NCBI GenBank assembly: GCA_041664165.1 | Contig: JBAYLH010000007.1 | Span: 1-59,894 of the forward strand | Source: Candidatus Buchananbacteria bacterium | Lineage (GTDB): Bacteria; Patescibacteriota; Patescibacteriia; Buchananbacterales; UBA6539 | DNA length: 59,894 nucleotides | Reading direction: 5' to 3' | Shown here: piece after piece, positions 27 through 59,894 of the stretch | Position numbering within the stretch: position 1 is the stretch's first letter | Layout: every line of letters starts with the position of its first letter | Made by a program: the position numbers and the translations under genes | Notes under the pieces: model-generated | Databases searched by the model: none | What the model was told of the DNA's origin: nothing | The model's input: only the letters and a program-made list of their open reading frames with translations

Positions 27-3000
27 TTAATACTTTTCTATCACTTTGATCGAGGCAGCGGCCGATGGGATATTTTTCTTGTTCCAGTTATCTTGAACTT
101 CAATGACTGGTTTAACCAGGCAGTAGTTTTGATCCGCCGGACAATCCAAATTCGGACCACGATTCGGGGAATTAGAAGTCCGCTTTAACTGCCAATAATC
201 ATAAGTATGATAAATCGTAAACGGATTTTCCAAATTCGGCCGCTCGCGCAAAGAAACGCCGGAAACCGAAGTTTTTTCGCCGTCTTGCCAGTCAACCGAA
301 TAGGACTTCAAAGGCAGCTGGTTGGCATCAACTTTAACCGTAAAATCCAATTTAACGGCGCCAACACCGTTAATCACCGTACTTTTCTGGCCATTAACTA
401 GCGTACTAGGAATTGCCGGTTCAATCCAGCAAACGTCGCTGAAAACACCCATCGGATCGGGATTGCCGGCCGGACGCTTGTTCTCTCCACACCTAGGGAA
501 AGAACCGCAGTTGATTGGCGGATTGGCTAAACAGTCCCAAGTTAAGGCATTACTGTTACTCACTTCTTTATACCCGTCGCCAAAATGGTTGATATTGCAA
601 GTCGCGGTATTGGTATTAGCGCAAAGGCTTTTATCGGTAACCGTACAATTCGCTGAATTATCGCTGCAAAGACCGCCAGTGGCCGCCGTGAAATCCCAGC
701 CGGTGCCATAACTTTTCAGAAAAATCCGTTTTAAATAATTTATGTCGTGTAGTTCGCCCATCCTGGCCTGATACGGCGCGCCTAAAGACGGCTGGGGCGG
801 TTCATAGAAAAGCGGCTGGCGGTTATTGGTCGTCCGGCTGTCCCAGTCCGGCGGATTTTGCAGGCCGGCCGGTGGAACAATCGCGCCGAAAGGTTCGTAA
901 TCTGAAGATTGATAGGCAAAATCCGGACTGTCAATATTGCCGTTCACGGCTTGGGCGGCCGTCAGAAATTGATCATAATTAAACGGATCGTAATAAAGAT
1001 AATAATTCCGATAGCTAGCGCCGACTTTTTTGCTGTTGGGGTCAGGCAAGAGGTATTGAGAACCCGGCGCCACCCGCGTTGACCAGGCCTTATTATTGCC
1101 GGTCGCGTCAACCACCTGGACTACTTGCTTGCAATAATTAACATTAATATCGTTAGTTTTAAAATTACCGTAAACTCCCGGCGCTTGTTCGGAACCTTCC
1201 ACCAAATTAATTACCGCCACGCCGTAAATATCGTTAGGAATATCCGGCATCGGATCAACAAACTGGCCGGTAAACCGCGGGTCATTTTCCGTTACAATGG
1301 TAACGCCGGTCGCCATTCCGATTTTGGCGCTGAACTGAACTCCTGAACTTATTTGAAGCGCCGCGGCTATATTTTCCATATCGCCGCCAGCCGCAAAGCC
1401 AAGGAGTGCTGAACCGGCTTGAGTAAATAAATTTAGAAATAGAGCTTGTGATTGAAAAGTTTGCATATCATCAATATAGCTGGCTGAACTTATTTGCGTT
1501 GAATTGTAGAACTTAAAACTATTTATATTTAAAAGAAGAGCCGCAGATGGATCTCCGGGAGAACCACCTGCAAGATTACCTACTATATCTAATGCTGAAC
1601 CAATAAGTTGAGAAATTCCAGGGTCACCACCTAATGCCCCTATTAAACCGGTAATTGCCGACCAAGGAACTATGAAACTCAGGGTGGCCGGTAAAAAACC
1701 ATAAATCTCACTGCCTTGCGATTGTAAATTAAAAGTTACATCACAACCTTGTATATGATCAATATTAGGATCACAATTTCCCGTTGGACCAAACGGCGTG
1801 CTATCTACGGTCGGCGGTAAATTCAAAACCATTCCTAAACCTCGCATCGCGAAGGCGGGCAAGTTGTCCGGTTCAAATTTAAAGTGGCCCTTGATTTGCC
1901 GGACATACGGATAGCGGAAAAGCGGCCGGTAGTCTTCGTTGATTTGAAACGGCACCAGCTGAACCGATCGGCCCTGGTTGTCATTGCTGCCGGCGCTGTA
2001 GCTGGTATAAGTATTGAAAGTGGCCATCAGCTGAGTTGACGGGAAAGCCGGCATCTCGCCTTTTTGCACACAATAATAAAGCGGCGTCTGGATTTGGTAA
2101 GGCACGACTTCATCGGCCATTTCGCCTTTGATTTGGTCGATTGGCAGCCACTGGACGCACTGCTGGGGATTATTCGGATCAGCGGTCAGGCAATAGCCGT
2201 ATTGGCCGATATGATAAATATTTTTGGCGTCGATATATTCGCAGGCCAAAGAACTATATTCGGGGTAAACCCGGCAGCTGCGGGAGACAAAATCATTGGC
2301 CGCAAAATTCAAATCATTACTCGTAACATTTTTAACCTGCAAAACCGGTTTTAAAGAAATCTGGTCAAACAGGGAATAGCCGCTGATGCCGCACTTGGTA
2401 TCGTCTTTACCGTCCCGGCAAGTGGCAACGTCACTAGCATAATTACTCAAATAAAGCGTCATTTTTGAACCCTTATCGCCGGAATTAAAGTCATAAGTCA
2501 GCTTCTGCCATTTGTTGCCGCTGGGTAAAACCAAAGCTTTGGGGCAGCAAACTTTGCTTCCGCTGTTATAATAGTCTCCTTCTTTTCGGCAGCTACTTTC
2601 GATTTCTGGATAGTAACAGACTTGCCCCCGCAAATAAGTACCCGGCAAAGTTCCCATAGTGGGATCGTCATGTTTTAATTCTTCGGTATTAATCCAGGCG
2701 GTCAAAATATAGTCGGTATTTTTTTCCAAATCAATTTCGGAAGATTTTGCCTCATAAGACGTGTTTAATTTCAAGTATCGGCCTTCGAGCCGCTGTTTGG
2801 AATTGGTTTCCAAAGTATATTTGTAAGGCATCCAGCCGCGGCCGTCAGTCGTATGGTCTGAACTCTGATTGCTGTATTCGCTCCAGGCCAGCGGCTGATT
2901 AGTTTGGTTAAAAGCCAATTCAAAATCGCCGTTGGAAATATAAGCCGCATTGCCGTACTGGGTCATTTCCGCGTAGGGGAAATAGCCGTTGATAGTCCGG

Positions 3001-6000
3001 GCGCAAGTTGTGAACGAGCCGGTGCAATCATTTTTAGAGTTGCAGGCGGCGCCGTTATTCATGCCGTTAGCGCAAACGCCCTGGTTAAAGCTCAAGCCGG
3101 CCGTGGCATAACCGCTTAAATTTTTAATTTCCTCAACTGTGCTGAACGCCGACTTTCTTAAATCATTGCCGCTTGAATCTTTACCGGCCGCCGGAACAAA
3201 ATTAGTGCAAATGCCGCTCTCATCAGCCGCATTGCAAAGGCCGAGGCTGAGGCATTGCTTTTGTTCGCCTTCGCTGGTAACGGCCGTAACCGCGTAGCTG
3301 GTACAAGCCAGCCAAGCTTCGCATTCGCGATCCGGCGTTACTTTCAAGACGGCATTGGAATCGCAGCTGCCCGAACAATTCGCCACCGGCAAGCCGTTAT
3401 TAACGTTGATGCCGCTGGTGTCGGCGTCAAAGCCCAGGGAGCTGATGTCATCTTCGCCGATTTTGAAATTAACCTGGCTGCGGTCATTAAACAAAACACA
3501 GCCCCGCTCCGGATCAACGATGCCGTTGCAGCTGAATTCATCAACCGTGTTGCTTAAAGTATAATAAATGCCGGTTTTGAATAAATTGACTTGTTTGACT
3601 GAATCTTTAATGTTATCCAAATCGCTGCCTTTTAAGTCCAGTTTGCAAACTTGCTTTTTGGGCACCGTAAAGCGGACGGAATAGGTGGTTTCCGCTGGAA
3701 AATTGCTGATTTGGTCAATTGTCCGGCTGTCGGCCTGGTAATTTCTCGGCGGAATTTTAAACGATTTATTGTCGCTGGCGATTTCAATTGAATGGTCGAA
3801 GGAAACGGCGTTCGGGCAGTCTTTCATTTCAATCACTAACAGGCTGCCATCAAGTTTCTTTTTGGCAGTAAAACTCAAAGTATATAAAGTATTGGCTTCC
3901 AGCTGCAAACCTTCCTGCGTGTAATTATCAGCGCCTTTTACCCAGCCATCGGGGACACTATTATTATCACTATCCCGGCTTAAATCGCCGTTGAAGATTA
4001 AATTTTTGGCAATCGTGCTGACGGGATCAATAAACTGAGTGCAGGAATTGAATTCGCCCGGACATAAGCCCGTCCAGCCATTGCTCGGATGGACAGCACC
4101 GACCGGCGGCTGAACCAGCGGGCAATCCGGTATTGTCGAAGCTGAACCGGATTTGAACCAGGCCGAGCTCGCCTGGCCGGGGGCAACCCGGTATTCGCAG
4201 GTTTTGGCTCCCGGATCTTTGAAATAAGCCGTCCCGTTGCCGGTCCGAAATTCATCGCAGCCGAATTCCGAACTTTGGCAAAGAATTGAACTATATTTAT
4301 CCGGATCATTAATCAGATAAGCCGTCTGGTAGCCGACGACTTTGTCAGCCGTGCTGATTTGCGGCCAGCCCAAAGCCTGGCAGCCTTTGTTGGCCGCGGT
4401 GCATTGAAACTGCGGCCGGTTAACCAGATAAACCAATTTGTCAGCCGGCACGCTAACCGCCGAAATCGGATCGTTGGCATTAAATGGCACTTCCGGTTCA
4501 TAAGGCGAAGCGGAATTAAAAGTATCAATCAGCGCCTGGCAGCCGATTACTTCCTGGCGGCACAAATGGTCGAATGATTTTAAATTATGGGTTCGGCTGT
4601 AGGAATCCCGATACTGCTTGCAGCCGAGCATAAATTGCGGCGCGGCAATCGGACCGGACGAAAGCCACGGATTGGTGTCGCAGCTATTCGGCGTTTTCCA
4701 GGAATTTTTGATTTCATAAACATAATTTTGAACTTCTTTGATTTCAATATTATCCGCGTAGAAAGCCGGCGTCCCGCCATTTTCACCAGTTAAGCTTAAA
4801 GCTAAATCCGAAGGAATGGCATCGGGCATGGTAAACGGCCCGAAATTATAATAATTCCAGTCCGAACCGAGGTTGGTTGATTCTTGAATAATGGCGCTGC
4901 CGGCCGAACCGCTGGCGAGCTTAACTTTGATTGGAATAGTATTGGTGGTCGAGCCTTTGGCCCAAAAAGAAATCAAATAAGTCTTAATCGGTTTAATCAG
5001 CTGGCTCAAATCCGAGCAAGATGATTCGCCGACATTAATCAGGCAAACCTGGCCGCCGGCGGTATCATCGGAAACGCACTTGCCCAAAGTCCGATCGAAA
5101 CAATCTTTGGCGTTATTGCCGCTGCAGGCTGTTACGCTTTCCGTGCAATTGCCGCCAGACGATAATTTGCTGTAAGCGCTGGCAATAGTTTCCAAACCAG
5201 CCAGCTGCTGGCTTTTAATTGAGTGGCCGCCGACGGACAACGCTTCGCTGCTAATCGTGCCGCTCTTCCAACCGACCGTGTCGCCGGGTTCAAAATTATC
5301 GGCAAAAGCCGTAAAGACGTTGCCGCTGGCATTACCGCTGTATTCGCGGCAGCCGGCGACGTTATTAGAACAGGCCAAACCTTGGCTGGGAATTGCCTGG
5401 TAAACGCAAGTTTTACTGCTGCCGTCCCAGGTGCCATGGCTGGCAGTACAATTAGCCGTCGCTTCGGCATCGCCTTCGTTCAGCCGCGATTTGCGGAACG
5501 GATGGCAGTCATCTGAACAGGCGATGGTATTATTATAAATCCGATAATAAATATTGCCGTCAATGCCGTAAAATTCCTTGCAGAAAGGATTGGAAATTAT
5601 ATCTTCCGGCCCGTCGCAGCAAGCCGGCTGGCCGTTAGCGCCGGCCGCCGTATCAGCGCACCAGTAAGGCAGCCAGCTTGAAATATCCATGGCCGCTTGC
5701 GGCGAACCGGCCGCGGCGGCTAAATTATAGACTTTGAGCTGGTAGCCGGCTTCGTCGGAACCCTGCCAATTATAGAAATTCTGGCAGCTGACGCCCGGGT
5801 CATTCGGCTTTTCGCAAAGCCTCAGGTATTTATAATATTCCTTGCCTTCGCCGCCCTTGGCAACTTCGTCTAAATTGGTAAATTCATCGCAGCCGGCGCT
5901 GGCGGCATTGCATTGTTTTCCGGTGGCCGGAATGAAATAATTAATCGAAGCCTGGCTTTCAAAAAAAGTATTTGATTGTTTATAAGAATCATAGCCGACG

Positions 6001-9000
6001 CATTCCGCCGGGCAATAGTCTTCCAGTTTGACGACGCCCGGAATTGTGGTTCCGCCTTTTAGCGGGGTATAAGCTTCGCAGCCGACTTCGTCTTGCTGGC
6101 AATACAAAGCGTAATTGGCGCACTGGGGCGAATCAACTTCGTGGCAGCAAAAATTGCCGGCCGCATCGCAGCTGTCAGCGGCGCAGGTGCCAGAGCCGCA
6201 ATCGGAATTAGCGCTGCAGCCTTGGCCGGCTTTGTCACCGCCCTGGCAGAACTTCCGCCAGACCAAAGTGTCGCCAACGCACTGAGCTTTGGTAACGCCG
6301 TCTAAAACCGCGGGGTTTGGCCGATCCAAACTATAGCCTTTGCAATCCAGTGAAACCGGCGCTTTTTTCAGATAAGTTAGGTTAGCCGCGCCATAATCTT
6401 TGTAGCTGGTCGTTACCGGATTTTTAGTTTCAACTTCTTCGATTTGAACGCCGTCAAGATAAAGCGGCTTGGTATTATCGGTACTCAAATTAGCGATTGA
6501 GAGTTTAAAATTATCGCTGCTGATTCGGGTAGTAATCGGATTGGCGACAAATCTCTGCCATTGGTCGGTTAAATGCAAAAATGCCGAATTATTAATTTGA
6601 AGCGGCGAAAAATCAGCCAAGCATTTGCCCTGGTTTCGGCCGCCAGCCGGACAGCCGCTCACCCCGTCGGCGCAGGTGCATAAATCATTAGTTGGCTCGC
6701 AGCTTAAAGCCGGATTCAAACTGCAAAAATGATCCGGATTATGATCGGATAAAATTTCCAAATACCACAGGCCGTCTTCCGGTTTTATTTCTTTGGTCGT
6801 CGAATCGGTTTTGGCCCAAAAAGAAATCCGGTAAGTGGTGTTGGCTTTCAAACCGGTAACCGGCCCGGTATCAAAATCCCGCGGCCGGCCCAAATTATCA
6901 TTATTTATTTTCAAGCATAATTTACCCACCGGGCAATCATTTTGAATTTGTTCAATTGAAGCATTATCGCTCGCTTGATGGCTTTCTCCCCAAAACCAGC
7001 CTTTGGGCAAACTACTAGCATCCGGCCAGTCTTCAAAACTGGCATTGTCAATCAAATTCGTGCCGGCATTGGGCAAAGTCTGGATGAATTCGGAACAACC
7101 AGCTTCCTCGGCCGAACAAGAACCGGCATCGCGGTCTAAATATAATTTGCTTTCGTCGCGGTCAATCGTCCCGACCAAAGTTAAAACTGCCCGATTAGTG
7201 ATGCAGCTTTTGGAAATCCGGAAATTATCAAACCAAACCACACCACTGACTTGTTTAACGCCGTCGCCGACTTCAATTCCGACCTTCACTTTGCCTTTGC
7301 CGTTGCCGGCGGCCGTAACCTTAAAATCAAAACTGATTTGCTGCCAGCCATTTTCTTTATTGACCATTTTTTCCCCTAGCACGCTGCTAGCCAAAGCATC
7401 GGTAACTTTTAAAGTAACATCGCCTTGGTTTAAATAATCATAAACTTGACTTGAAAAAGTATAATCGCCGGCCGGCAATTCCAATTCGGCCGAAGTCGCC
7501 GATTCGTCAATAACCGAACCGTAGTTGAAAAATCTCAAGCTCGCCTGGCCGCCATCGGCATAAATTCTTTCCGCCCCGCCGGCAACCTGGCTGAAATATT
7601 CCCGGTTGCCTTGCCACTTCAAAGAAAGCTGGCCGGTTGCCGGTGCCACGGCCGTTTCAAAACTCGGATTAGGCAACAAATTATCCAGGCTACTGCAGCT
7701 GTCGATAGCGCAAGAAACTCCGTTTTGCTTGATGGTGCAGCCGGTATTGACCACGCATTTGCTGCCGCTGGCCACCCAGAATTTTGAGCCGGAACTGCAT
7801 TTGTCGCTGATAGTCAAATTAACCTGCGAATTGGCGTCAAGACAGAAATTCAAGCCGTTGGGAATATCGCAGCTCGCCGTTACCGGACAGCCGCCTTTCT
7901 GGGTGCAGGGTTTGAGAACTTTTTTACCCTCATTAACGCAAGTCCAAATATTGTCAACCGGATTATAAGTCTGGCAATACCATTTGCAGCCGGCGTTATT
8001 GATGCTGCAGCCGTTGTAATTCAAAGAATTGGCCAAATAGCTGGCCACTGAGCCGCTGCTGCTTTGAAAAGTCTGACAGGTGTTATAATTAGCGCTGCAA
8101 TCTTTTCCGGCTAAATCCCAAACTCTTTTTTCTTCGCTGCAATAGCCGTAATTGCGGCAAGTGCCGTCGTTATTCCGGCTGATACAAGACTGGAAATCCG
8201 CGCAATATTCGGCGCGGCCGATATCGAGACTGGCCGCTTCGTCAGCCGAGCTGCCGGTTTCGGCTTGATAGATAATTTTCGGCCCGAAGCCCTGATTTTT
8301 ACAGATGACTTCCGGCAATTTTAAAACCCAATCCGGATCAATCAAGCCGTGATAAATACTCGCCGCATCGTTAGGGTCATTAAATTTTGAAACTAAATAA
8401 TTAAGGGTAATAATTTTACCGGGATCAAGCAGATGACCGGCTTCGGCCGCTAATTCCCAGCCAACCGGCACAATCCGGTAACTCCTCATAATCACGATAT
8501 TCCGATAAGACAGCTCCAAATTTTTCGCCGTCGGATCAAAATTCCAGGCTCCGAACGGCGCTTCACCGTCAATTAACCCGGCCTTCAGCGCATCCTTTAA
8601 AGTCATTTTTCTTTCGATGATATCGCGAAAAGCCGGCGAAATCACGCATTCTTCCGATCCCGGATTTTTGGGATCAGGACAAAAACTCAATTTGCTTAAT
8701 AAATCATAATCGCTGCTCGGCTTAACGCCGGCTTCCAAAAAATCCAAAAACCGCCGTTCGGCCGCCTTCTTGCCGCCGTATAAAGACACTCCGGTGTCGC
8801 CGGTATATAAATCCTGACTGCCGCCAGGACCCGGCCGAGGCAATAAACCCGCCAAAGCCCGGGCCAAATCTTCAATATAATTTTCATCATTGCCGGCATT
8901 GCTGGCCAAACCCTGCCTAAACCATTTGTCAAAAAGTTTGGACATTAAAGTATTGGCAAAAGTCGCAATCGCATAACCAAAAATATCGCCGAAAGGAACG

Positions 9001-9959
9001 TCCTCGGCCGCCTTGGTGCCTTTGCTGAGCGCCTGGTAAGACGCTTCGGAAACCAAAGACGATGGCGTCAAAATCGAATCAGCAATTTTTTGGCCGACCG
9101 ACTTCCAGCCTTGGCCTTCCTGCCGGCCCAAAATCCCGGCTAATTCATCTTTGGCTTTGGTCTGATAATAAAAATCAAACATCGAAAAAGCAATGCCGAT
9201 GTCATTAGCTGACGGCTCAAAAATACCGGTGAATTTATTCAAAAAATTCGGATCCTTGGCAAAACTTTGCCAATTCTTTACTAGCTGGGTTACGGTGCAT
9301 TTCGGCGGTTTCGGCCGACCCAGTTCGCTGATTCCCAAACTGATTCTGATTTTAATCGGACTGGCCGGTTCGCAAACATTATAATGCAGCCAGCTGCCGC
9401 TCAAACTTTCCAAAAATTTACCGCCGGCGGCATCGGCCAAATCCTTTAAATAAGCGCCCCAGCCCTTGGTATAAAACATCGGCTTTTGGCCTTCATCGCC
9501 GGTCGCCAGCCAAGTGGCCGTATCATAAGCAAAGGTATTAAGCATGTGGCTGACTGCGGTTTTGGCCGCCGCGTAAACGGAGTCTTTCAAGCTTTCCCAG
9601 CCCCAGTCCCTGACTTTAAAGAAATTACCCCACCAATCCTGCAAGCGCTGAATAAAAGTCAGATTTTTATTGGTGGTTTTGGTATCTTTATCAACTGCAT
9701 TGATAGTATCTTTTTGATTACCAGTTACTTCATCAAATTGGGGCTTGGTTACTTCGACTTCAATTGCGCTGGGCGACGCTGCCGCTTTGACCGGCAGCGG
9801 ATATAAAGCCGCTGGCATTACCGAAACTAAAACCATTTGAACCGTAATAATGATGGAAGCGGTTTTTTTAAAGCCGGAAAACCAAGGCCGACTCACCCGA
9901 TTTTTCAGCTGGGTTTGACCGTCTCCTGGCTTGGCAGATTTATTTGAAAAGTAATTCAT
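27..9959 (-). CDS. Giant (3310 aa) secreted/surface protein, Cys-rich, with several CBM4/9-like (galactose-binding fold) domains
   Basis: Single long ORF; N-terminal hydrophobic segment (ASIIITVQMVLVSVMPAALY); recurring domain starts NLLPNPSFET, NLIDNASFED, NLIFNGDLS, YISNGDFE; about ten C-x4/5-(G/S/T)C-xx-(F/Y/L) modules. Confidence 0.8.
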   Translation of the reverse strand: MNYFSNKSAKPGDGQTQLKNRVSRPWFSGFKKTASIIITVQMVLVSVMPAALYPLPVKAAASPSAIEVEVTKPQFDEVTGNQKDTINAVDKDTKTTNKNLTFIQRLQDWWGNFFKVRDWGWESLKDSVYAAAKTAVSHMLNTFAYDTATWLATGDEGQKPMFYTKGWGAYLKDLADAAGGKFLESLSGSWLHYNVCEPASPIKIRISLGISELGRPKPPKCTVTQLVKNWQSFAKDPNFLNKFTGIFEPSANDIGIAFSMFDFYYQTKAKDELAGILGRQEGQGWKSVGQKIADSILTPSSLVSEASYQALSKGTKAAEDVPFGDIFGYAIATFANTLMSKLFDKWFRQGLASNAGNDENYIEDLARALAGLLPRPGPGGSQDLYTGDTGVSLYGGKKAAERRFLDFLEAGVKPSSDYDLLSKLSFCPDPKNPGSEECVISPAFRDIIERKMTLKDALKAGLIDGEAPFGAWNFDPTAKNLELSYRNIVIMRSYRIVPVGWELAAEAGHLLDPGKIITLNYLVSKFNDPNDAASIYHGLIDPDWVLKLPEVICKNQGFGPKIIYQAETGSSADEAASLDIGRAEYCADFQSCISRNNDGTCRNYGYCSEEKRVWDLAGKDCSANYNTCQTFQSSSGSVASYLANSLNYNGCSINNAGCKWYCQTYNPVDNIWTCVNEGKKVLKPCTQKGGCPVTASCDIPNGLNFCLDANSQVNLTISDKCSSGSKFWVASGSKCVVNTGCTIKQNGVSCAIDSCSSLDNLLPNPSFETAVAPATGQLSLKWQGNREYFSQVAGGAERIYADGGQASLRFFNYGSVIDESATSAELELPAGDYTFSSQVYDYLNQGDVTLKVTDALASSVLGEKMVNKENGWQQISFDFKVTAAGNGKGKVKVGIEVGDGVKQVSGVVWFDNFRISKSCITNRAVLTLVGTIDRDESKLYLDRDAGSCSAEEAGCSEFIQTLPNAGTNLIDNASFEDWPDASSLPKGWFWGESHQASDNASIEQIQNDCPVGKLCLKINNDNLGRPRDFDTGPVTGLKANTTYRISFWAKTDSTTKEIKPEDGLWYLEILSDHNPDHFCSLNPALSCEPTNDLCTCADGVSGCPAGGRNQGKCLADFSPLQINNSAFLHLTDQWQRFVANPITTRISSDNFKLSIANLSTDNTKPLYLDGVQIEEVETKNPVTTSYKDYGAANLTYLKKAPVSLDCKGYSLDRPNPAVLDGVTKAQCVGDTLVWRKFCQGGDKAGQGCSANSDCGSGTCAADSCDAAGNFCCHEVDSPQCANYALYCQQDEVGCEAYTPLKGGTTIPGVVKLEDYCPAECVGYDSYKQSNTFFESQASINYFIPATGKQCNAASAGCDEFTNLDEVAKGGEGKEYYKYLRLCEKPNDPGVSCQNFYNWQGSDEAGYQLKVYNLAAAAGSPQAAMDISSWLPYWCADTAAGANGQPACCDGPEDIISNPFCKEFYGIDGNIYYRIYNNTIACSDDCHPFRKSRLNEGDAEATANCTASHGTWDGSSKTCVYQAIPSQGLACSNNVAGCREYSGNASGNVFTAFADNFEPGDTVGWKSGTISSEALSVGGHSIKSQQLAGLETIASAYSKLSSGGNCTESVTACSGNNAKDCFDRTLGKCVSDDTAGGQVCLINVGESSCSDLSQLIKPIKTYLISFWAKGSTTNTIPIKVKLASGSAGSAIIQESTNLGSDWNYYNFGPFTMPDAIPSDLALSLTGENGGTPAFYADNIEIKEVQNYVYEIKNSWKTPNSCDTNPWLSSGPIAAPQFMLGCKQYRDSYSRTHNLKSFDHLCRQEVIGCQALIDTFNSASPYEPEVPFNANDPISAVSVPADKLVYLVNRPQFQCTAANKGCQALGWPQISTADKVVGYQTAYLINDPDKYSSILCQSSEFGCDEFRTGNGTAYFKDPGAKTCEYRVAPGQASSAWFKSGSASTIPDCPLVQPPVGAVHPSNGWTGLCPGEFNSCTQFIDPVSTIAKNLIFNGDLSRDSDNNSVPDGWVKGADNYTQEGLQLEANTLYTLSFTAKKKLDGSLLVIEMKDCPNAVSFDHSIEIASDNKSFKIPPRNYQADSRTIDQISNFPAETTYSVRFTVPKKQVCKLDLKGSDLDNIKDSVKQVNLFKTGIYYTLSNTVDEFSCNGIVDPERGCVLFNDRSQVNFKIGEDDISSLGFDADTSGINVNNGLPVANCSGSCDSNAVLKVTPDRECEAWLACTSYAVTAVTSEGEQKQCLSLGLCNAADESGICTNFVPAAGKDSSGNDLRKSAFSTVEEIKNLSGYATAGLSFNQGVCANGMNNGAACNSKNDCTGSFTTCARTINGYFPYAEMTQYGNAAYISNGDFELAFNQTNQPLAWSEYSNQSSDHTTDGRGWMPYKYTLETNSKQRLEGRYLKLNTSYEAKSSEIDLEKNTDYILTAWINTEELKHDDPTMGTLPGTYLRGQVCYYPEIESSCRKEGDYYNSGSKVCCPKALVLPSGNKWQKLTYDFNSGDKGSKMTLYLSNYASDVATCRDGKDDTKCGISGYSLFDQISLKPVLQVKNVTSNDLNFAANDFVSRSCRVYPEYSSLACEYIDAKNIYHIGQYGYCLTADPNNPQQCVQWLPIDQIKGEMADEVVPYQIQTPLYYCVQKGEMPAFPSTQLMATFNTYTSYSAGSNDNQGRSVQLVPFQINEDYRPLFRYPYVRQIKGHFKFEPDNLPAFAMRGLGMVLNLPPTVDSTPFGPTGNCDPNIDHIQGCDVTFNLQSQGSEIYGFLPATLSFIVPWSAITGLIGALGGDPGISQLIGSALDIVGNLAGGSPGDPSAALLLNINSFKFYNSTQISSASYIDDMQTFQSQALFLNLFTQAGSALLGFAAGGDMENIAAALQISSGVQFSAKIGMATGVTIVTENDPRFTGQFVDPMPDIPNDIYGVAVINLVEGSEQAPGVYGNFKTNDINVNYCKQVVQVVDATGNNKAWSTRVAPGSQYLLPDPNSKKVGASYRNYYLYYDPFNYDQFLTAAQAVNGNIDSPDFAYQSSDYEPFGAIVPPAGLQNPPDWDSRTTNNRQPLFYEPPQPSLGAPYQARMGELHDINYLKRIFLKSYGTGWDFTAATGGLCSDNSANCTVTDKSLCANTNTATCNINHFGDGYKEVSNSNALTWDCLANPPINCGSFPRCGENKRPAGNPDPMGVFSDVCWIEPAIPSTLVNGQKSTVINGVGAVKLDFTVKVDANQLPLKSYSVDWQDGEKTSVSGVSLRERPNLENPFTIYHTYDYWQLKRTSNSPNRGPNLDCPADQNYCLVKPVIEVQDNWNKKNIPSAAASIKVIEKY

Positions 9960-20245: not shown

Positions 20246-21349
20246 TTAATGATTAAGCAAAAAATCAAAACTGCCGGAAATCATGGCATGGGCGTTCCTA
20301 ATTGCCCGGTCGCCAACTTGGCCGGCATATCGGCTGGTTATAATATCATTACCCACGGCAACCCAAGCGGCCTGGCTGCCGCCGATTCCCGCCAAAATAT
20401 CAGTTTGAAGCTGGGTAAAACCATTGAGCCCGGCTTGGCCTAAATTAAAAGCCATATCCGTCAAGACCACCTGCCGGGCTTCGGAAATTCGGCCCAAAGC
20501 ATCCCAATTCGCCTGGCCGCCGACATAATTAATTGCTGTTTGATTGGCAGCGACTAGCCTTGATTGATACAAAGCTTCGGCCTGTTGCGGCGACAGTACC
20601 GTGTTAGCATTTAAAGTGACGGTTTCGGAAGTACCGTTGGCATAAGTCAAAGTAACCTGGTCGCCCGGCGTAAACCGGCACCCGGCGCCAATCGTCCAAT
20701 TGCCGAGGTTATCCTGATAAGCGCCCAAAGAAAAATTGCCAGATCCTTCATTATTTAAAATATAAGAATAAGCATCGCCGGCATAACCGCCGGGTAAATT
20801 ATATTGCCCCGGATTGGGATAATAATCATAATCACCGATACCGGTATAACCGGGCGTAAAAATCGGACCGGTCACGCCGGGCAATTTCGCCACTTGAATC
20901 TGTTTGATTTTAATCCCCTGCAAATTAATTAATGAGGGATTAATGGTCGCTAAAATCATAAACGCAAAAAAGGCCAAAAGCAAGCCGCTCAAAGCGCTGG
21001 CGATAAATTCTTTGGCCGTGCCGACTTTATCCGGACTGCCGGCTGACATCAGCCAAACCAAGCCGCCGGCCATAATCATCACAATAGCCAAAGTCGCCGC
21101 CAAACCGATGCCGTATTTATACAAAGCCGAAATGTAATCGCCGATCCAAGGAATACAATAATTACCGCCGCAAGGCTCAATCGGTCCGAATTTAATCGGC
21201 GTATTGCCCAGCTGAAACTGAATTTTCGGTTCGCTAACCGCCCCGGAAGAATTGGGAATGGTAACGGTGTTTGAATCCGCTTTTAAACCAACGGGCAATA
21301 ATAAAAAAACTAAAAAAAATGAGAAAATAATAATCCTGAAATATTTCAT
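20246..21349 (-). CDS. VirB2/TrbC-like pilin fused to a T4-type (GH24) lysozyme domain
   Basis: Pilin segment YISALYKYGIGLAATLAIVMIMAGGLVWLMSAGSPDKVGTAKEFI; C-terminus ILNNEG...AYQDNLGNWTIGAG and RQVVLTDMAFNLGQAGLNGF...SRYAGQVGDRAIR parallel T4 lysozyme motifs. Confidence 0.85.
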   Translation of the reverse strand: MKYFRIIIFSFFLVFLLLPVGLKADSNTVTIPNSSGAVSEPKIQFQLGNTPIKFGPIEPCGGNYCIPWIGDYISALYKYGIGLAATLAIVMIMAGGLVWLMSAGSPDKVGTAKEFIASALSGLLLAFFAFMILATINPSLINLQGIKIKQIQVAKLPGVTGPIFTPGYTGIGDYDYYPNPGQYNLPGGYAGDAYSYILNNEGSGNFSLGAYQDNLGNWTIGAGCRFTPGDQVTLTYANGTSETVTLNANTVLSPQQAEALYQSRLVAANQTAINYVGGQANWDALGRISEARQVVLTDMAFNLGQAGLNGFTQLQTDILAGIGGSQAAWVAVGNDIITSRYAGQVGDRAIRNAHAMISGSFDFLLNH

Positions 21350-21429
21350 AAAAAGTAATGCTGCTCAATTTTAACTGACCTATGACCCTCGCCCGCTAAA
21401 TACTAAGTATAACTAGGCACGGAGACCCC

Positions 21430-21505
21430 ACTTCGACTCGAACGACGCGAGCCCGCTTCGCCGAATCGATTCCGAGTCGAAGCGAGGCGAGCCCGCTTCG
21501 CCGAA
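21430..21505 (-). repeat. GCGAGCCCGCTTCG repeat cluster between pilin genes
   Basis: Two cores gcgagcccgcttcgccgaa, the reverse complement of the array core at 48440/51470/59760. Confidence 0.75.
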
Positions 21506-21526
21506 ACAAAAGGTGGTTTAAAAAAA

Positions 21527-22396
21527 CTAACGCGGCCACTCCGGTACCCAGGTCCAATTAGCCCCGGCAGCTTCAACGTGAAAATGCCGCCCGGTTCCTC
21601 CCGGTTCATCCACGAAAATCGTACCGTCTCGCATTCTATATGCCCTGCCCCACGTAAGCTGAGTAAAATTTGACCCATCGGGATTTTTGATAGCATTGGT
21701 TGTTACATAGTTATAACAAGGAGCCGTCATACTCGCATCCCAGACATAACCCGAACCATGGCGGTTCTCACCGGCTCGATAGCCATCAGTCGAAGTGCAG
21801 CCTTGGTCTTGATAGAGTTGCCGCCTTTGATTTGCTTCGTCTGTTAGCTGAGTAAAATTGCCGCGAGCCGTGCCGCCGCCGGCTCCTGTCCCGGCTCCGA
21901 TTGCCGCAAATTCCGCTGAACCGCCCGAACCAAACCCGGGCGATATCACGCCCGGCAACTTCGCGACGGCGATTTGCTTTATCCTAATGGCTTCCAAGTT
22001 GGTCAGTTTCGGATTTATCGCCGTTAGCACCATAATGGCAAATAAGGCCAAAAACAATCCGCTCAAGGCGCTAGTGATAAACTCTTTGGCTTTACCGACT
22101 TTATCCGGACTGCCGGCCGACATCAGCCAAACTAACCCGCCGACCATAATCATCACAATGGCTAAAGCGGCGGCGAAACCGACGCCGTAGTTATATAAAG
22201 CGGAAATATACTGGCCAAGCCAAGGAATTGAACACTCGGAACCGGCGGTGCAACTGACCGTTTGAAAATCAATTTTAGTTGAGCCGATTATAACCTGCAT
22301 TTTAGGCGGCGTGGTCTCACCAGCGGCCAAAACTAAAACCGGCAGAAAAATTGTCAAAATTAAACTGGCTAATAAAATTTTATTTCTCTTTTTCAT
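21527..22396 (-). CDS. VirB2/TrbC-like pilin fused to a putative M15-like Zn peptidase domain
   Basis: Same pilin segment; C-terminal GYR...RHGSGYVWD and HFHVE match the H-x(3-6)-D / HxH pattern of M15/LAS peptidases. Confidence 0.75.
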   Translation of the reverse strand: MKKRNKILLASLILTIFLPVLVLAAGETTPPKMQVIIGSTKIDFQTVSCTAGSECSIPWLGQYISALYNYGVGFAAALAIVMIMVGGLVWLMSAGSPDKVGKAKEFITSALSGLFLALFAIMVLTAINPKLTNLEAIRIKQIAVAKLPGVISPGFGSGGSAEFAAIGAGTGAGGGTARGNFTQLTDEANQRRQLYQDQGCTSTDGYRAGENRHGSGYVWDASMTAPCYNYVTTNAIKNPDGSNFTQLTWGRAYRMRDGTIFVDEPGGTGRHFHVEAAGANWTWVPEWPR

Positions 22397-22508: not shown

Positions 22509-23387
22509 TCACATTGAAATATTCAACCTATTTGATTGCATCATATTTTCTATATATGACAACCCGGATGACATATCCATATTATTCAAATTCTGAGCCA
22601 TATCCCTAAATAGTTGGGGGATAGGAAAAATCAAATTACCCGGTGAATACCAGTGATTAGCAAGATTTGCTTGATTTGAAGCATCAACCCAGGGTATGCC
22701 ATCATTTATCGTTCGCGCATCAATTCCCCCATAATAGTATTGCCACCGGCCATCGTAAAATCTTAAATTTAACACACTTGTTGCCGACATTCCGACACGA
22801 TTTATTTCCGGCGGCGTTTCGACATGGATAAATCTACCATTATCAAAATCAGTCGCAGAAATACGCGCATTTAGGCCATTAGTGATTCCTTCAAGCCGCG
22901 GATTTACCCCGGTAACGGTAATTCCTTTTAAATTAACCAAATTGGGATTAATCGTGGTTAAAATCATCACCGCAAAAAGCGCCAAAAGCAAACCGCTCAA
23001 AGCGCTGGCGATAAATTCTTTCGCTTTGCCGACTTTGTCCGGACTGCCGGCTGATAATAGCCAGACTAAGCCGCCGACCATAATCATCACAATAGCTAAG
23101 GCGGCGGCCAAACCGATGCCGTAGTTATATAAAACGGAAATATACTGGCCGATCCAGCTAATTTGCAAGCACTGAACGCCGTTGGCCGTGCCGTTGGGAC
23201 AATAATTCGAACCACTTTGCCAGCCGGCGTTTTCGCCCGTCCAGCCGCTAAAGCCGCCGAGATGAATTTGAACTGTCGGCACAATCGGATCAGCCGCCAA
23301 GGTCAGGTTGGCGCCAAAAATAAAAATGAAAAAAAATAGCAAAAATTTTCCCGGGAGGCTCAAATTAAAATTTATTTTTTTAGCCAC
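22509..23387 (-). CDS. VirB2/TrbC-like pilin with unrecognised C-terminal domain
   Basis: Same pilin segment (YISVLYNYGIGLAAALAIVMIMVGGLVWLLSAGSPDKVGKAKEF); AT-richer unrelated C-terminus; GTG start 3 nt after the dsbA stop. Confidence 0.75.
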   Translation of the reverse strand: MAKKINFNLSLPGKFLLFFFIFIFGANLTLAADPIVPTVQIHLGGFSGWTGENAGWQSGSNYCPNGTANGVQCLQISWIGQYISVLYNYGIGLAAALAIVMIMVGGLVWLLSAGSPDKVGKAKEFIASALSGLLLALFAVMILTTINPNLVNLKGITVTGVNPRLEGITNGLNARISATDFDNGRFIHVETPPEINRVGMSATSVLNLRFYDGRWQYYYGGIDARTINDGIPWVDASNQANLANHWYSPGNLIFPIPQLFRDMAQNLNNMDMSSGLSYIENMMQSNRLNISM

Positions 23388-23390
23388 AAA

Positions 23391-24146
23391 TTATTGGTTT
23401 AGATAAGAAGTAATCATCTGCTCAAAAACGTTAAAAGGAACCGCGCCGGAAAGCTTGAGTCCGTTGATAAAAAAAGTGGGCGTGGCGGTAACGCCTAAAT
23501 CGGCGCCAGCTTGTAAATCCTCTTCGATTTTTTTGAGATATTTGCCTTCGGCGATGCAGGTATCAAACAGCGGCATATTCAAACCAGTCTGCAGGGCATA
23601 GGTTCTCAAGTCCGGAGTTAATAATTTAGTCTGATTATCAAAAATTTTATCATACATCGGCCAAAATCCGCCTTGTTCATTGGCGCAAGCCCCGGCCATC
23701 GCCGCCATTAAGGCTTGGGGATGATTATCAACTAAGGGGAAATTGCGAAAGACAAAAAGAATCCGGTCGCCATAATCTTTTAAAAGCTTTTTAACCACGG
23801 GGTAGGCTTCTTCGCAAGCCGGACACTGAAAATCGGCAAATTCAACAATTACCACTTTAGCGTCTTTTTTGCCGAACTTGGGGTCGTCAACTCCAAAAAA
23901 GCTGGAAAAATCTTTCGGCTGGGCTGAATTGACATTGCCGAAAACCTGTTTTGGGCTGACTTCACCGCTTTTGACCAAAGTTACAACTCTGGCGGCATAA
24001 AAAATCAAAGCCGACAAAATCATCAAAAAAACCGCCGAGAAAGCCAAAATTATCCGGCCCCACCATTTCTGATACCATTTTTTTTTGGTTTTTCCGGTTT
24101 TTTGTTGGCTGGGCGGCAGATTAAAATAATCGTTTGAACTAGGCAT
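23391..24146 (-). CDS. Membrane-anchored DsbA-family thiol-disulfide oxidoreductase
   Basis: EFADFQCPAC active site, RNFPL, GVTATPTFFING (cis-Pro loop); N-terminal TM. Confidence 0.93.
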   Translation of the reverse strand: MPSSNDYFNLPPSQQKTGKTKKKWYQKWWGRIILAFSAVFLMILSALIFYAARVVTLVKSGEVSPKQVFGNVNSAQPKDFSSFFGVDDPKFGKKDAKVVIVEFADFQCPACEEAYPVVKKLLKDYGDRILFVFRNFPLVDNHPQALMAAMAGACANEQGGFWPMYDKIFDNQTKLLTPDLRTYALQTGLNMPLFDTCIAEGKYLKKIEEDLQAGADLGVTATPTFFINGLKLSGAVPFNVFEQMITSYLNQ

Positions 24147-29265: not shown

Positions 29266-30513
29266 ATGAAAAAACTTTTACTCTGTTTGCCGCTTTTATT
29301 AACCTTGCTTGTTTCCGGCTGTCAAGCACCACCGATTGCCCAACCTAATGTTAACGACAACGGTGCTAATTTGGATTCAATTGGTAAAACCATTAAAGGT
29401 AATGATGAATTCGGCTTGAATTTATATACTAAATACAAGACCAAAGACGGCAATATTTTCTTTTCACCCTATAGCATCTCTTCGGCTTTGGCGATGACTT
29501 ACGAAGGCGCCAAAGGCCAAACCGCCGCTGAAATGCAGAAAGTTTTCGGCTTTTTAGCCGACCCGACCGATCGCCGGTCTTCTTTTGCTAAAATCTACAA
29601 CGATTTGAACGCAAAAAATGAAGATTACCAGCTTAACACAGCCAACGCTTTATGGGTGCAAAAAGATTTTCCATTTTTAGCTGATTATCTTAACCTGGTT
29701 GAAAAATATTACGGTGGCAAAGCAACCAATTTGGATTTTATAAATCAAACCGAACAGTCCCGACAGACAATTAACCAATGGGTGGAAAAAAAGACTAATA
29801 ACAAGATTCAAAACCTCCTGCCCCAAGGCAGTGTTTCTGGTGACACCAGGCTGATTTTAACCAATGCCGTTTATTTCAAAGGAACCTGGCTTTTCCCGTT
29901 TGAAAAAAGCAGCACTCAAAAAAAAGATTTTCAGCTAACACCAACCAATACCGTTACTGTCGATATGATGCAACTATACGGCAAAAAATTTAAGTATAGC
30001 GAGACTAATAAACTCCAAGCCTTAGAAATACCATACAAGGGTGATAAAATTTCCATGCTAATTCTATTGCCAAAAAATAACGATTTGGCGTATCTGGAAA
30101 ATAACCTCAACTTGAAAAATTTAAATGAGTGGAAAACCAGCATGAACTCAGAAAAAGTCACAGTTTTTTTACCTAAATATAAATTTGATACAAAATATGA
30201 TATGGCCCAAGATTTAACTCAATTAGGCATGCCAACCGCTTTCAATTGTTCACTCGCTGATTTCTCCGGCATGACCGGCAAAACTGACTTATGTATTGAC
30301 CAGGTCATTCATAAAGCCTTTATTGAAGTTGATGAACAGGGAACTGAAGCCGCGGCGGCTACGGCGGTTATCATGAAGACTAGCATGGCTGGTCCGACTC
30401 AACCAGAAAAAATCTACTTTTTTAATGCTGATCATCCATTTATCTTCTTAATTCAAGACAAACAAAGCGGCAATATCTTATTTTTAGGCCGAGTCAGCGA
30501 CCCGACCAAATAA
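29266..30513 (+). CDS. Serpin-family protease inhibitor, probable lipoprotein
   Basis: NIFFSPYSISSALAMTYEGAKGQT, hinge EQGTEAAAATAV, FNADHPFIFLI; lipobox LLVSGC. Confidence 0.95.
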   Translation: MKKLLLCLPLLLTLLVSGCQAPPIAQPNVNDNGANLDSIGKTIKGNDEFGLNLYTKYKTKDGNIFFSPYSISSALAMTYEGAKGQTAAEMQKVFGFLADPTDRRSSFAKIYNDLNAKNEDYQLNTANALWVQKDFPFLADYLNLVEKYYGGKATNLDFINQTEQSRQTINQWVEKKTNNKIQNLLPQGSVSGDTRLILTNAVYFKGTWLFPFEKSSTQKKDFQLTPTNTVTVDMMQLYGKKFKYSETNKLQALEIPYKGDKISMLILLPKNNDLAYLENNLNLKNLNEWKTSMNSEKVTVFLPKYKFDTKYDMAQDLTQLGMPTAFNCSLADFSGMTGKTDLCIDQVIHKAFIEVDEQGTEAAAATAVIMKTSMAGPTQPEKIYFFNADHPFIFLIQDKQSGNILFLGRVSDPTK

Positions 30514-48205: not shown

Positions 48206-48715
48206 GTCATTCTGAGTTCCGATCGCCGGCCGTGATGGCAGGTAGGCGACCAGAACGAAGAATCTCGACTCAATGAGACAAACCGAGATCCTTCGGCCTC
48301 CGGCCTCAGGATGACAATTCGGCGTATAGCTGTTTTAATTTCCAGGCTAAGCCTCAAGACAAGTCTCAGTCTCCAAGCTGTGTCGTCTAAAGACCAACAC
48401 TTGTGTTGACCGCTAATACTACAAAACAAGTTTTGTTCACCTCGCTTGACGCGAGTCGAAGCGGGCTCGCCTCGATTCGGCGAAGCGGGCTCGCCTCGCT
48501 TCGACTCGGAATCGACTCGGCGAAGCGGGCTCGCCTCGACTCAACCGCCCGCTTAACGTGAGTCGAAGCGGGTTCTCCGGGCTGCATCGCACTTGTGCTA
48601 CCAATCGGATAACCCCGCACTAAAACTTAGTATTTGTAACTGCTCGGCTTCGCCTCACAGACAAATACTAAAAAAAAGACCAGCTAAGCTCGTCTTAAAC
48701 GACAAGTAGCTGGTC
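48206..48715. repeat. Composite repeat element copy 1 (REP-like unit, GAAGCGGGCTCGCCTCG array, conserved hairpins/terminator)
   Basis: Shares 48393-48440 and 48627-48715 with the element at 51284-51938. Confidence 0.8.
48671..48715 (-). terminator. Intrinsic terminator after purC
   Basis: GACCAGCTA...TAGCTGGTC stem followed by T-run on the - strand; near-identical one at 51891-51938 after purH. Confidence 0.7.
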
Positions 48716-51283: not shown

Positions 51284-51938
51284 AATTTGTCATTCCACAC
51301 TGGTCTATTGATGACAGGCTTGAGGCGGAATCCAGGAGTCCTTTTTTGCCGCCCATGGCGACATAAGCCCAGGGCTACGCCTCATAACAAATCTCGGATT
51401 CCCAAGCCGCGCCGTCTGGCGGAGACCAACACTTGTGTTGGCCGCTAAAACTACAAAACAAGTTTTGTTCGCCTCGATTCGGCGAAGCGGGCTCGCCTCG
51501 ATTCCGATCGCTTCCGAGTCGAAGCGGGCTCGCCTCGATTCGGCGAAGCGGGCTCGCCTCGATTCCGATCGCTTCCGAGTCGGAGCGGGCTCGCCTCGCT
51601 TGACGCGAGTCGGAGCGGGCTCGCCTCGCTCGACGCGAGTCGGAGCGGGCTCTCCACTAGTCAAGTTAAGCTGCCGGACTAAAGTCCGGCCTGCGTGGAG
51701 AACCCAGCTTATCCCGCTCCAAGTTTGCGAACCGGCTTTAATTAATATTATCGTCTAGTTGGCGCAAAGATCGCCTTACCTGAAATAAACTCAATTATCG
51801 GCTGGTAAGATTAATAATCATGTTTAATTAGGAACTTGGTGCGGGATTAGTATTTGTAACTGCTCGGCTTCACCTCGCGGACAAATATTAAAAAAAAGAC
51901 CAGCTAAGCTCGTCTTATATTGACAAGTCTAACTGGTC
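51284..51938. repeat. Composite repeat element copy 2
   Basis: First ~220 bp nearly identical to 59573-59790; internal array of six (A/G)GCGGGCTC cores; right end shared with copy 1. Confidence 0.9.
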
Positions 51939-59572: not shown

Positions 59573-59894
59573 AATTTGTCATTCCGCACTGGTTTATTGA
59601 CGATAGGCTTGATGCGGAATCCAGGAGTCCTTTTTTGCCGCCCATGGCGACATAAGCCCAGGGCTACGCCTCATAACAAATCTCGGATTCCCAAGCCGCG
59701 CCGTCTGGCGGAAACCAACACTTGTGTTGGCCGCTAAAACTACAAAACAAGTTTTGTTCACCTCGATTCGGCGAAGCGGGCTCGCCTCGCTTGACGCGAG
59801 TCGAAGCGGGCTCGCCTCGCTTGACGCGAGTCGAAGCGGGCTCGCCTCGCTTGACGCGAGTCGAAGCGGGCTCGCCTCGCTTGACGCGAGTCGA
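59573..59894. repeat. Composite repeat element copy 3, truncated by the window end; includes a 30-bp tandem repeat
   Basis: TTGACGCGAGTCGAAGCGGGCTCGCCTCGC repeated exactly three times from 59791 plus a partial fourth. Confidence 0.92.

Follow-up and report, generated by a model that had tools for sequence, protein, structure and literature searches.

The VirB2-like pilins of the type IV secretion system (T4SS) form gene arrays that are widespread in the Patescibacteria and that are essential in S. epibionticum (PMC12102498, PMC10633639). They are found near virB4 in 1135 of 1948 assemblies (Wang et al., 2023, PMC10633639; Quinonero-Coronel et al., 2025, PMC12102498), and both the pilin arrays and hydrolases encoded in the T4SS clusters have already been published (PMC10633639, PMC12102498, PMC12857230). 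The role of the Patescibacteria T4SS has been termed 'completely unknown' (PMC11665869); a pilus in a monoderm has been raised as speculation, and for no Patescibacteria T4SS has a pilus so far been demonstrated (PMC12857230). In a survey of 3,035 genomes, most of the VirB2-bearing genomes were without VirB1, and another glycosidase might serve in its place (PMC12102498). In this study, a stretch of 59,894 nucleotides from Candidatus Buchananbacteria (contig JBAYLH010000007.1; the window) was analyzed around one gene, p1 (positions 20246-21349, minus strand), which encodes a VirB2-type pilin module joined to a lysozyme domain of family GH24. A fusion of a VirB2-type pilin with a hydrolase was not described in the literature searched, including supplements, although a wider absence is not thereby proven, and no mention of such fusions was found in PMC10633639 or PMC12102498. 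The fusion sequences are already public with automatic domain matches.

The array to which p1 belongs shares with the described Patescibacteria arrays the PF18895 family, the combination of a signal peptide and a hairpin, the tandem divergent paralogs and the phylum (PMC10633639, PMC12102498). Pilins described so far are small proteins of about 90-160 amino acids, whereas each pilin of the window carries a C-terminal cargo of 110-230 amino acids; furthermore, unlike the virB4-adjacent pilins, the window array follows a dsbA gene in housekeeping surroundings, and no gene of a T4SS was found in 59.9 kb. The N-terminal module of p1 appears to belong to the PF18895 pilin family but departs from it in location, lying outside a T4SS operon, and in size, since the linker and the enzyme add 217 amino acids C-terminal to the pilin. 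Local degradation of peptidoglycan tied to a T4SS is also known from VirB1 and from PrgK, TcpG and TraG of Gram-positive bacteria, the latter three being membrane-anchored, multi-domain proteins. Enzymes of this type contain SLT, CHAP or LytM domains on an ordinary transmembrane anchor and are encoded in the T4SS operon, whereas p1 combines a GH24 domain with a pilin as the anchor and, except in its Saccharibacteria relatives, the gene is found outside such an operon. Judging from its different fold and from a window in which no T4SS operon was found, p1 is not a member of the VirB1 family and would be VirB1-like in function at most.

Structural filament or needle modules with a wall-cutting enzyme on their C-terminal side are represented by T4 gp5 and V. 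cholerae VgrG-3. VgrG-type 'evolved' effectors have exchangeable cargo, and VgrG-3 has a cognate immunity gene; none was seen beside p1, the next genes being uvrA and dsbA. Both proteins belong to the phage tail or to the spike of the type VI secretion system and carry the fusion at the tip, whereas the fusion in p1 is on a subunit of the polymerising type. The signal-anchor-release (SAR) endolysins, such as Lyz of phage P1 and R21 of phage 21, are membrane-tethered GH24 enzymes with Gly/Ala-rich helices that must be able to leave the bilayer, and they likewise place an enzyme of the T4 lysozyme (T4L) family at the membrane's outer face. However, in a SAR endolysin one N-terminal helix is attached directly to the enzyme, and the gene belongs to a phage lysis cassette, whereas p1 has a cleaved signal peptide, a two-helix pilin and a 40-residue linker; p1 is not a SAR endolysin. 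It also differs from phage endolysins in that its enzyme is not soluble but follows a membrane or pilin module and is encoded in a cellular chromosome.

Architecture of the fusion protein p1

The open reading frame (ORF) of p1 begins with ATG and encodes 367 amino acids followed by a stop codon. Its AlphaFold2 model (m3dba061627f9) has a mean predicted local distance difference test score (pLDDT) of 77.7, and the protein splits into five parts, all encoded on the minus strand. The first is a signal peptide (residues 1-24, MKYFRIIIFSFFLVFLLLPVGLKA; 21278-21349), recognized from the N-terminal hydropathy peak, a model helix at residues 2-21 and a hidden Markov model (HMM) of stand-alone pilin precursors, with a cleavage site placed by eye, likely after GLKA24. 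It is followed by an extracytoplasmic N-terminal segment (21152-21277) with a small β-hairpin (strands 58-60 and 63-66) containing Cys60 and Cys65. The third part is the VirB2-type pilin hairpin (20900-21151), modeled at a pLDDT above 90, in which a helix at residues 67-101, the loop SAGSPDKVGTAKE, a helix at residues 106-136, an NPSL motif and a short strand at residues 146-148 succeed one another; residues 70-133 are matched by PF18895. A Pro/Gly/Tyr-rich disordered linker (residues 151-190; 20780-20899), with a pLDDT below 50 for residues 152-190, leads to the muramidase domain of T4L type (residues 191-367; 20249-20779), which was identified from sequence, profile and Foldseek matches to T4L. 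The four peptides on which a first-pass annotation had based its claim of a pilin–lysozyme fusion all lie in p1 (ILNNEG at residues 197-202, AYQDNLGNWTIGAG at 210-223, RQVVLTDMAFNLGQAGLNGFTQL at 292-314 and SRYAGQVGDRAIR at 339-351). That claim was borne out by the sequence profiles, the predicted fold and the residue conservation, and the linker has the composition that had been stated for it, so that p1 is confirmed as a pilin module, a flexible linker and a GH24 muramidase domain that keeps the catalytic residues of T4L.

The pilin assignment was based on an HMM of 65 stand-alone pilins of the candidate phyla radiation (CPR), taken from Moranbacteria, Wolfebacteria, Paceibacterota and Parcubacteria, with a median length of 130 amino acids and a range of about 90-160; most are annotated with PF18895 and some also with PF04956 (TrbC/VirB2). 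This HMM covers ORF positions 6-158 of p1 (protein residues 1-153) with an E-value of 2.7e-29 and also matches the equivalent region of its two window paralogs, p2 and p3. Since it spans the whole precursor, the lysozyme has been appended to a complete pilin and not to a generic transmembrane anchor. The hydropathy profile and the three modeled helices give the pilin arrangement of a signal peptide and two hydrophobic helices separated by a short charged loop. In addition, the mean pairwise identity among eight pilin–GH24 proteins is 56% in the hairpin, 41% in the enzyme, 27% in the N-terminal segment and 20% in the linker; the hairpin is thus the most conserved region, which suggests a constraint beyond simple membrane anchoring. 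Each of the three window paralogs has a Cys pair directly ahead of helix 1, as does the majority, though not the whole, of the nine pilin–GH24 fusions compared; in p1, which has a DsbA-like gene upstream, Cys60 and Cys65 probably form a disulfide.

The C-terminal domain belongs to GH24, its likeness to lysozyme being much stronger than chance would give. T4L was matched over residues 207-364 with an E-value of 1.7e-7 (phmmer against the PDB), and a profile of the nine pilin-fused lysozyme domains (A3) matched T4L residues 8-160 at an E-value of about 1e-31 and PF00959 proteins at E-values down to 5e-32. In the alignment to T4L, the nEG, YrD, TiG and nRA motifs of the profile correspond to Glu11, Asp20, Thr26 and Arg145, respectively, so that the catalytic Glu, Asp and Thr equivalents reported by the first-pass annotation are present as Glu201 (codon 20747-20749), Asp213 (20711-20713) and Thr219 (20693-20695). 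The globular domain (residues 192-366) was modeled with a pLDDT of mostly 80-97, and the comparison with T4L that the annotation had proposed gave a lysozyme-like fold, with a template-modelling (TM) score of 0.76 normalised to T4L and a Foldseek probability of 1.0; the top 25 PDB matches were all T4L (TM 0.74-0.77, normalised likewise), and phage lysozymes were returned from the viral library. Overall, p1 is only about 22-25% identical to T4L, and its 'few extra residues' between Glu and Asp prove to be a three-residue SGN insertion.

Among the nine fusions, which are 34-44% identical, Glu201, Asp213 and Arg348 (the Arg145 equivalent) are invariant, and the position of Thr26 is occupied by Thr in six, Ser in two and Val in one. 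An equivalent of Thr26 goes with hydrolase rather than transglycosylase chemistry. The substrate-cleft motif of T4L (M-x-F/Y-N/Q-x-G) is also kept in p1 and the fusion family. The catalytic and cleft residues being invariant or conservatively replaced, the conservation has the pattern of purifying selection on catalysis, and on this sequence evidence the GH24 domain of p1 is likely to be catalytically active. As a separate observation, a giant protein of 3579 amino acids (P0019) matched residues 219-283 of p1 in 26 separate stretches (overall E-value 8.9e-50; search query 20249-20797, minus strand). This part of p1 is the β-rich small-lobe region, TLTYANGTSETVTLNANT..., and the match probably reflects a repeat of similar composition.

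Pilin-cargo fusions in other genomes and metagenomes

Among 1.84 billion representative proteins, 361 matched the lysozyme domain at an E-value of 0.001 or below, and the best matches were themselves pilin fusions (P0020, P0002, P0003, P0024, P0043, P0087, P0080 and P0048). At least nine cluster representatives are pilin–GH24 proteins, from Falkowbacteria, Parcubacteria and other CPR genomes; the species-representative genomes with the fusion are those of Falkowbacteria (loci L004 and L005), Parcubacteria (L008) and unclassified Patescibacteria (L003, L006 and L010). The fusion was also found on a contig labeled 'uncultured Gammaproteobacteria bacterium' (L007, CAYVUR010000001.1), where the order of a membrane protein, pilin–GH24, a pilin with another cargo and radA is of the CPR type seen in L008 and L010; this contig is likely to have been mis-binned or mislabeled. 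Phage matches to the lysozyme domain, which include T4 gp5-type 'baseplate hub + tail lysozyme' proteins, were all below 30% identity (tblastn, 50,697 phage records), and no phage genes were found around p1 in Pfam scans of the window. A phage origin, raised in the first-pass annotation, is therefore not indicated and a recent one was rejected, because the nearest relatives are the pilin-fused Patescibacteria domains.

The gene order is conserved, with dsbA followed by one to three pilin-cargo genes and then by uvrA (the window and L001-L003) or radA (L004-L010); a dsbA-like gene occupies the matching position in L001, L002 and L004. In the syntenic locus L003 ('Patescibacteria group bacterium SMAG_U8121'), UvrA and LeuRS are 75% and 72% identical to those of the window, whereas the pilin–lysozyme protein is only 36% identical, indicating that p1 evolves far faster than its neighbours. 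Furthermore, L083 has a pilin–SLT gene before uvrA, in the same syntenic slot as the pilin–GH24 gene of the window, so that both the number of genes (one to three) and the type of cargo (GH24 or SLT) differ among syntenic loci. A conserved membrane protein of 413-424 amino acids is encoded just upstream of the pilin-cargo genes in the radA-type loci (L004:3900-5174, L006:552-1805, L007:1091-2335, L008:4589-5830 and L010:4560-5801) and in six of the 78 metagenome loci described below, with the DsbA-like gene in between in L004-L006. No Pfam family passed the cut-off in the two members scanned, and this protein could be a partner to the pilin-cargo genes.

In three Saccharibacteria loci (L017, L018 and L050), a PrgI-like gene, virB4, an ORF of 253 amino acids and a gene for a pilin–GH24 protein of 496-727 amino acids are located beside dnaA/dnaN. 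The first ~130-140 residues of these proteins match the stand-alone-pilin HMM (E-values of 4e-9 to 7e-9). The Pfam scan covered L017, in which the remainder consists of PF00959 and VanY, so that VanY is shown for this locus only; L018 and L050 had been picked up by a match to GH24. The Saccharibacteria proteins place the same design inside a T4SS cluster.

When proteins were searched with the hairpin profile, the word prefilter let through nothing but short stand-alone pilins, and the cargos were hence surveyed in metagenome loci. There, the same profile picked out 125 pilin ORFs at 78 loci. Of the 116 pilin ORFs that are complete, 112 extend at least 100 amino acids past the pilin; two or three pilin-cargo genes are present in 44 of the 78 loci, and 30 have a DsbA-like gene immediately upstream. 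The Pfam census was taken on 102 proteins (101 non-redundant metagenome proteins and p1), 88 of which matched T4SS_pilin. Every recognized cargo is a peptidoglycan hydrolase, from 11 families that together account for about a quarter of the proteins: SLT and NlpC/P60 (five proteins each), VanY (four), Amidase_2, Phage_lysozyme (GH24), Peptidase_M15 and 3D (two each), and M23, M15_3, Amidase_5 and Glucosaminidase (one each). The sole other match was one MFS_1, which is transmembrane noise, and roughly three quarters of the cargos have no Pfam match. The family thus has a conserved N-terminal module with exchangeable C-terminal enzymes, which is the organization of polymorphic or 'evolved' effectors. 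In six metagenome loci of another lineage (L117, L120, L131, L137, L146 and L148; for example L117:1637-6822), the pilin-cargo genes are interleaved with genes resembling 2-oxoacid:ferredoxin oxidoreductase, as called by eye from N-terminal motifs without a Pfam check. The order DsbA-like, gamma, delta, alpha, pilin, beta, pilin was seen in at least six loci.

The p3-p2-p1 array and its surroundings

In the window, p1 is the last gene of a tandem array of three genes on the same strand, in the order p3, p2, p1. The p2 gene (21527-22396, minus strand) encodes a pilin with a C-terminal domain of 110 amino acids without a fold assignment, and p3 (22509-23387, minus strand) a pilin with a C-terminal domain that is likewise unassigned. 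A pilin-coding repeat of 283 nucleotides (family D1) is common to the three genes at 75-78% nucleotide identity, whereas their 3' parts are unrelated. The gene for a membrane-anchored DsbA-like thioredoxin with a CPAC motif (23391-24146, minus strand; PF13462 at 8.3e-30 and PF01323 at 4.2e-17) ends 4 nucleotides upstream of p3 and is probably the first gene of a p3-p2-p1 operon. The search for terminators and promoters in the array gave weak consensus matches only; the best promoter-like site on the minus strand, at 24348-24319 upstream of dsbA, was not relied on.

The cargo of p2 (residues 175-289) belongs to a family with invariant Arg207, Arg212, His213, Asp220, His271, His273 and Glu275 in an H-x6-D...H-x-H pattern. 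Such a motif was noted by eye as that of an M15/LAS peptidase, but this assignment was rejected; there was no Pfam match and no PDB sequence match, the best E-value in Foldseek of the model (m003e8a2fa4c2) was 0.025, to AcrA hairpins, and hhalign against VanY domains was not significant. The domain may represent a new wall-active or metal-binding fold.

Downstream of p1 lie uvrA and leuS, and the other genes of the window are housekeeping genes, such as those for KsgA, Sua5, FemAB, RNase J, TrpRS, GDH, SHMT, FolD and Pur proteins. The only RNA element found by Rfam was a tRNA-Leu. The spacer between p2 and p1 contains a GC-rich imperfect hairpin (21426-21510, minus strand; −64.8 kcal/mol and z −2.97 for the RNA fold of 21350-21530), which is a copy of a dispersed repeat with the core CGAAGCGGGCTCGC. 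The window contains 16 copies of this repeat, where 0.63 would be expected, grouped into four clusters (21447-21500 on the minus strand, and 48457-48577, 51483-51654 and 59772-59894 on the plus strand), with units of 24-30 nucleotides, some in tandem arrays of two to four copies. The spacing is too short for clustered regularly interspaced short palindromic repeats (CRISPR), and the repeat therefore looks like an element of the repetitive extragenic palindromic (REP) type. Elsewhere in the window, an ORF of 3310 amino acids (27-9959, minus strand), for which the sole Pfam match is one CBM_4_9 carbohydrate-binding domain, looks like the large surface proteins reported in CPR genomes, and a full-length serpin is encoded at 29266-30513 on the plus strand (PF00079, E-value 2.5e-124) in a bacterium with a small genome.

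Proposed function of the pilin-borne muramidase

The function favoured here, with chances that we judge to be about even, is that of a pilin-borne muramidase, tethered to the surface or to a pilus, which would act in cis as a VirB1-like local wall cutter of the pilin or T4SS machinery. p1 would be exported by Sec as a membrane protein whose N-terminal ~150 residues make up a complete VirB2/TrbC-type pilin precursor, in which the two-helix hairpin follows a signal peptide and a cap stabilised by a disulfide, and whose C-terminus is a muramidase, predicted to be competent, on a flexible tether of ~40 residues. After cleavage of the signal peptide, the two ends of the hairpin would be outside and the short charged loop would be cytoplasmic; with both ends outside, the enzyme would be placed on the membrane's outer face. 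In conjugative or VirB2-type pili of known structure, the loop between the helices points into the lumen, with the joined termini on the outer side (PMC11722321), so that a C-terminal enzyme would decorate the outside of a pilus. The enzyme could then make local cuts in the peptidoglycan glycan strands at points of contact between the pilin pool or pilus and the wall, be it the cell's own or that of a host, and p1 would serve as one interchangeable cassette of the p3-p2-p1 array, expressed together with a DsbA oxidase. A muramidase in cis is favoured because most VirB2-bearing Patescibacteria are without VirB1 and another glycosidase is possible. The analysis establishes the domain architecture, the fold, the conserved catalytic residues, the array, the DsbA synteny, the hydrolase cargos across the family and the virB4-adjacent version in Saccharibacteria; from these we infer the topology, the disulfide, the activity and the incorporation into a pilus.

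A number of observations weigh against this function. The PF18895 score of p1 is 18.9 bits, under the cut-off of 26.6, whereas p2 and p3 reach 27.7 and 28.8 bits and the Falkowbacteria counterpart (L004) clears the cut-offs for both PF18895 (38.3 bits) and PF00959 (61.6 bits); in addition, the pilin profile gave no sequence match to the solved pilins at an E-value of 10 or less. To our knowledge, polymerisation has not been demonstrated for any VirB2-type pilin that bears a globular cargo, and a domain of 177 residues on every subunit would crowd the pilus surface. No T4SS gene (virB4, virD4, virB6 or virB8) was found by Pfam among the ORFs of at least 100 amino acids that were scanned in the window, and virB4 was found within 6 kb in none of the 78 metagenome loci by an HMM that represents three Saccharibacteria sequences and could overlook distant virB4. 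Furthermore, pilin-cargo genes sit amid housekeeping genes (uvrA, radA and even inside a putative por operon), which fits a core autolysin. As for the enzyme, the SGN insertion is unique to p1 among the nine fusions, the position of His31 in T4L is a Cys in p1, and the helix that bears Glu201 was modeled at a pLDDT of only about 60.

The chromosomal setting leads to the strongest alternative, which is somewhat unlikely. The hairpin would merely anchor a housekeeping autolysin to the cell's own membrane, with no pilus and no T4SS; a monoderm without an outer membrane would otherwise lose its secreted hydrolases, and the family would be an ordinary set for wall remodelling in growth and division. 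The housekeeping surroundings, with no T4SS gene found nearby among the window ORFs scanned and no virB4 found in any of the 78 metagenome loci, agree with such an anchor, as does a cargo repertoire that covers the bond types cut by autolysins. The window also encodes functions of peptidoglycan synthesis (FemAB, Glu racemase and a GlmM-like protein), and a tether of 40 residues, at most about 14 nm, is suited to the cell's own wall. However, conservation is higher in the hairpin, its cytoplasmic loop included, than in the enzyme, which is unusual for a passive anchor. The autolysin anchor is also at variance with the rapid divergence of p1 compared with UvrA and LeuRS, with the turnover of gene number and of GH24 and SLT cargos between syntenic loci, and with the Saccharibacteria version inside a T4SS cluster.

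A stronger form of the pilus-tethered muramidase is more tentative and rather improbable, namely that exchangeable hydrolases are carried on the subunits of a T4SS pilus or pilin patch, so that the filament would digest its way through the host's wall and that of the cell itself. In this enzyme-armed 'evolved pilin', the wall chemistry of the host would be matched by cassette arrays (GH24, SLT, amidase, NlpC/P60, M15, M23 and others), a proposal that we regard as equally doubtful.

It is unlikely that p1 is an enzyme directed against hosts or competitors, either released by cleavage after the hairpin or delivered on a pilus, with cassettes that track host walls. The fast divergence, the replacement of cassettes and the multiple bond specificities do resemble polymorphic effector systems, and fusions of a structural component with a lysozyme are known from T4 gp5 and V. 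cholerae VgrG-3. Patescibacteria epibionts need their T4SS and pilin array for growth on hosts (PMC10633639), and C-terminal trimming of VirB2-type pilins has precedents in RP4 TrbC and R27 TrhA (PMC11722321). The first-pass annotation had accordingly suggested that TrbC-like processing could release the lysozyme. However, this suggestion found no support, as no peptidase of the TraF/TrhF/S26 type was found among the window ORFs scanned and no conserved cleavage motif for release was identified; the array spacers of 112 and 177 nucleotides contain no credible ORF, and hence no immunity-like small gene, and nothing shows contact with a host. Lastly, it is highly improbable that the domain serves as an adhesin that binds glycans without catalysis or is an enzyme in decay, as the unique insertion, the His31-to-Cys replacement, the modest model confidence of the Glu helix and a PF00959 score barely over the cut-off (22.9 against 22.3 bits) might suggest, since the Glu, Asp and Arg145 equivalents and the F/Y-N/Q cleft motif are kept across the nine fusions.

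With such proteins, the role of the T4SS and its pilin arrays in the Patescibacteria becomes a testable question, since the enzyme domains lend themselves to expression and assay, and the fusion proteins to tagging and localisation. The recognized cargos are enzymes that lyse bacterial walls, and the family supplies about 75 further C-terminal domains without assignment, which may include new cell-wall-active folds. Should the enzyme-armed pilus prove to be true, it would represent the first case of a globular enzyme carried by a VirB2-type pilin and would provide a concrete mechanism by which epibiotic CPR bacteria breach their hosts. Wall-cutting pilins would fill the VirB1 gap in the Patescibacteria, and the pilin-cargo design, if true, may explain how a pilus passes through the cell wall.

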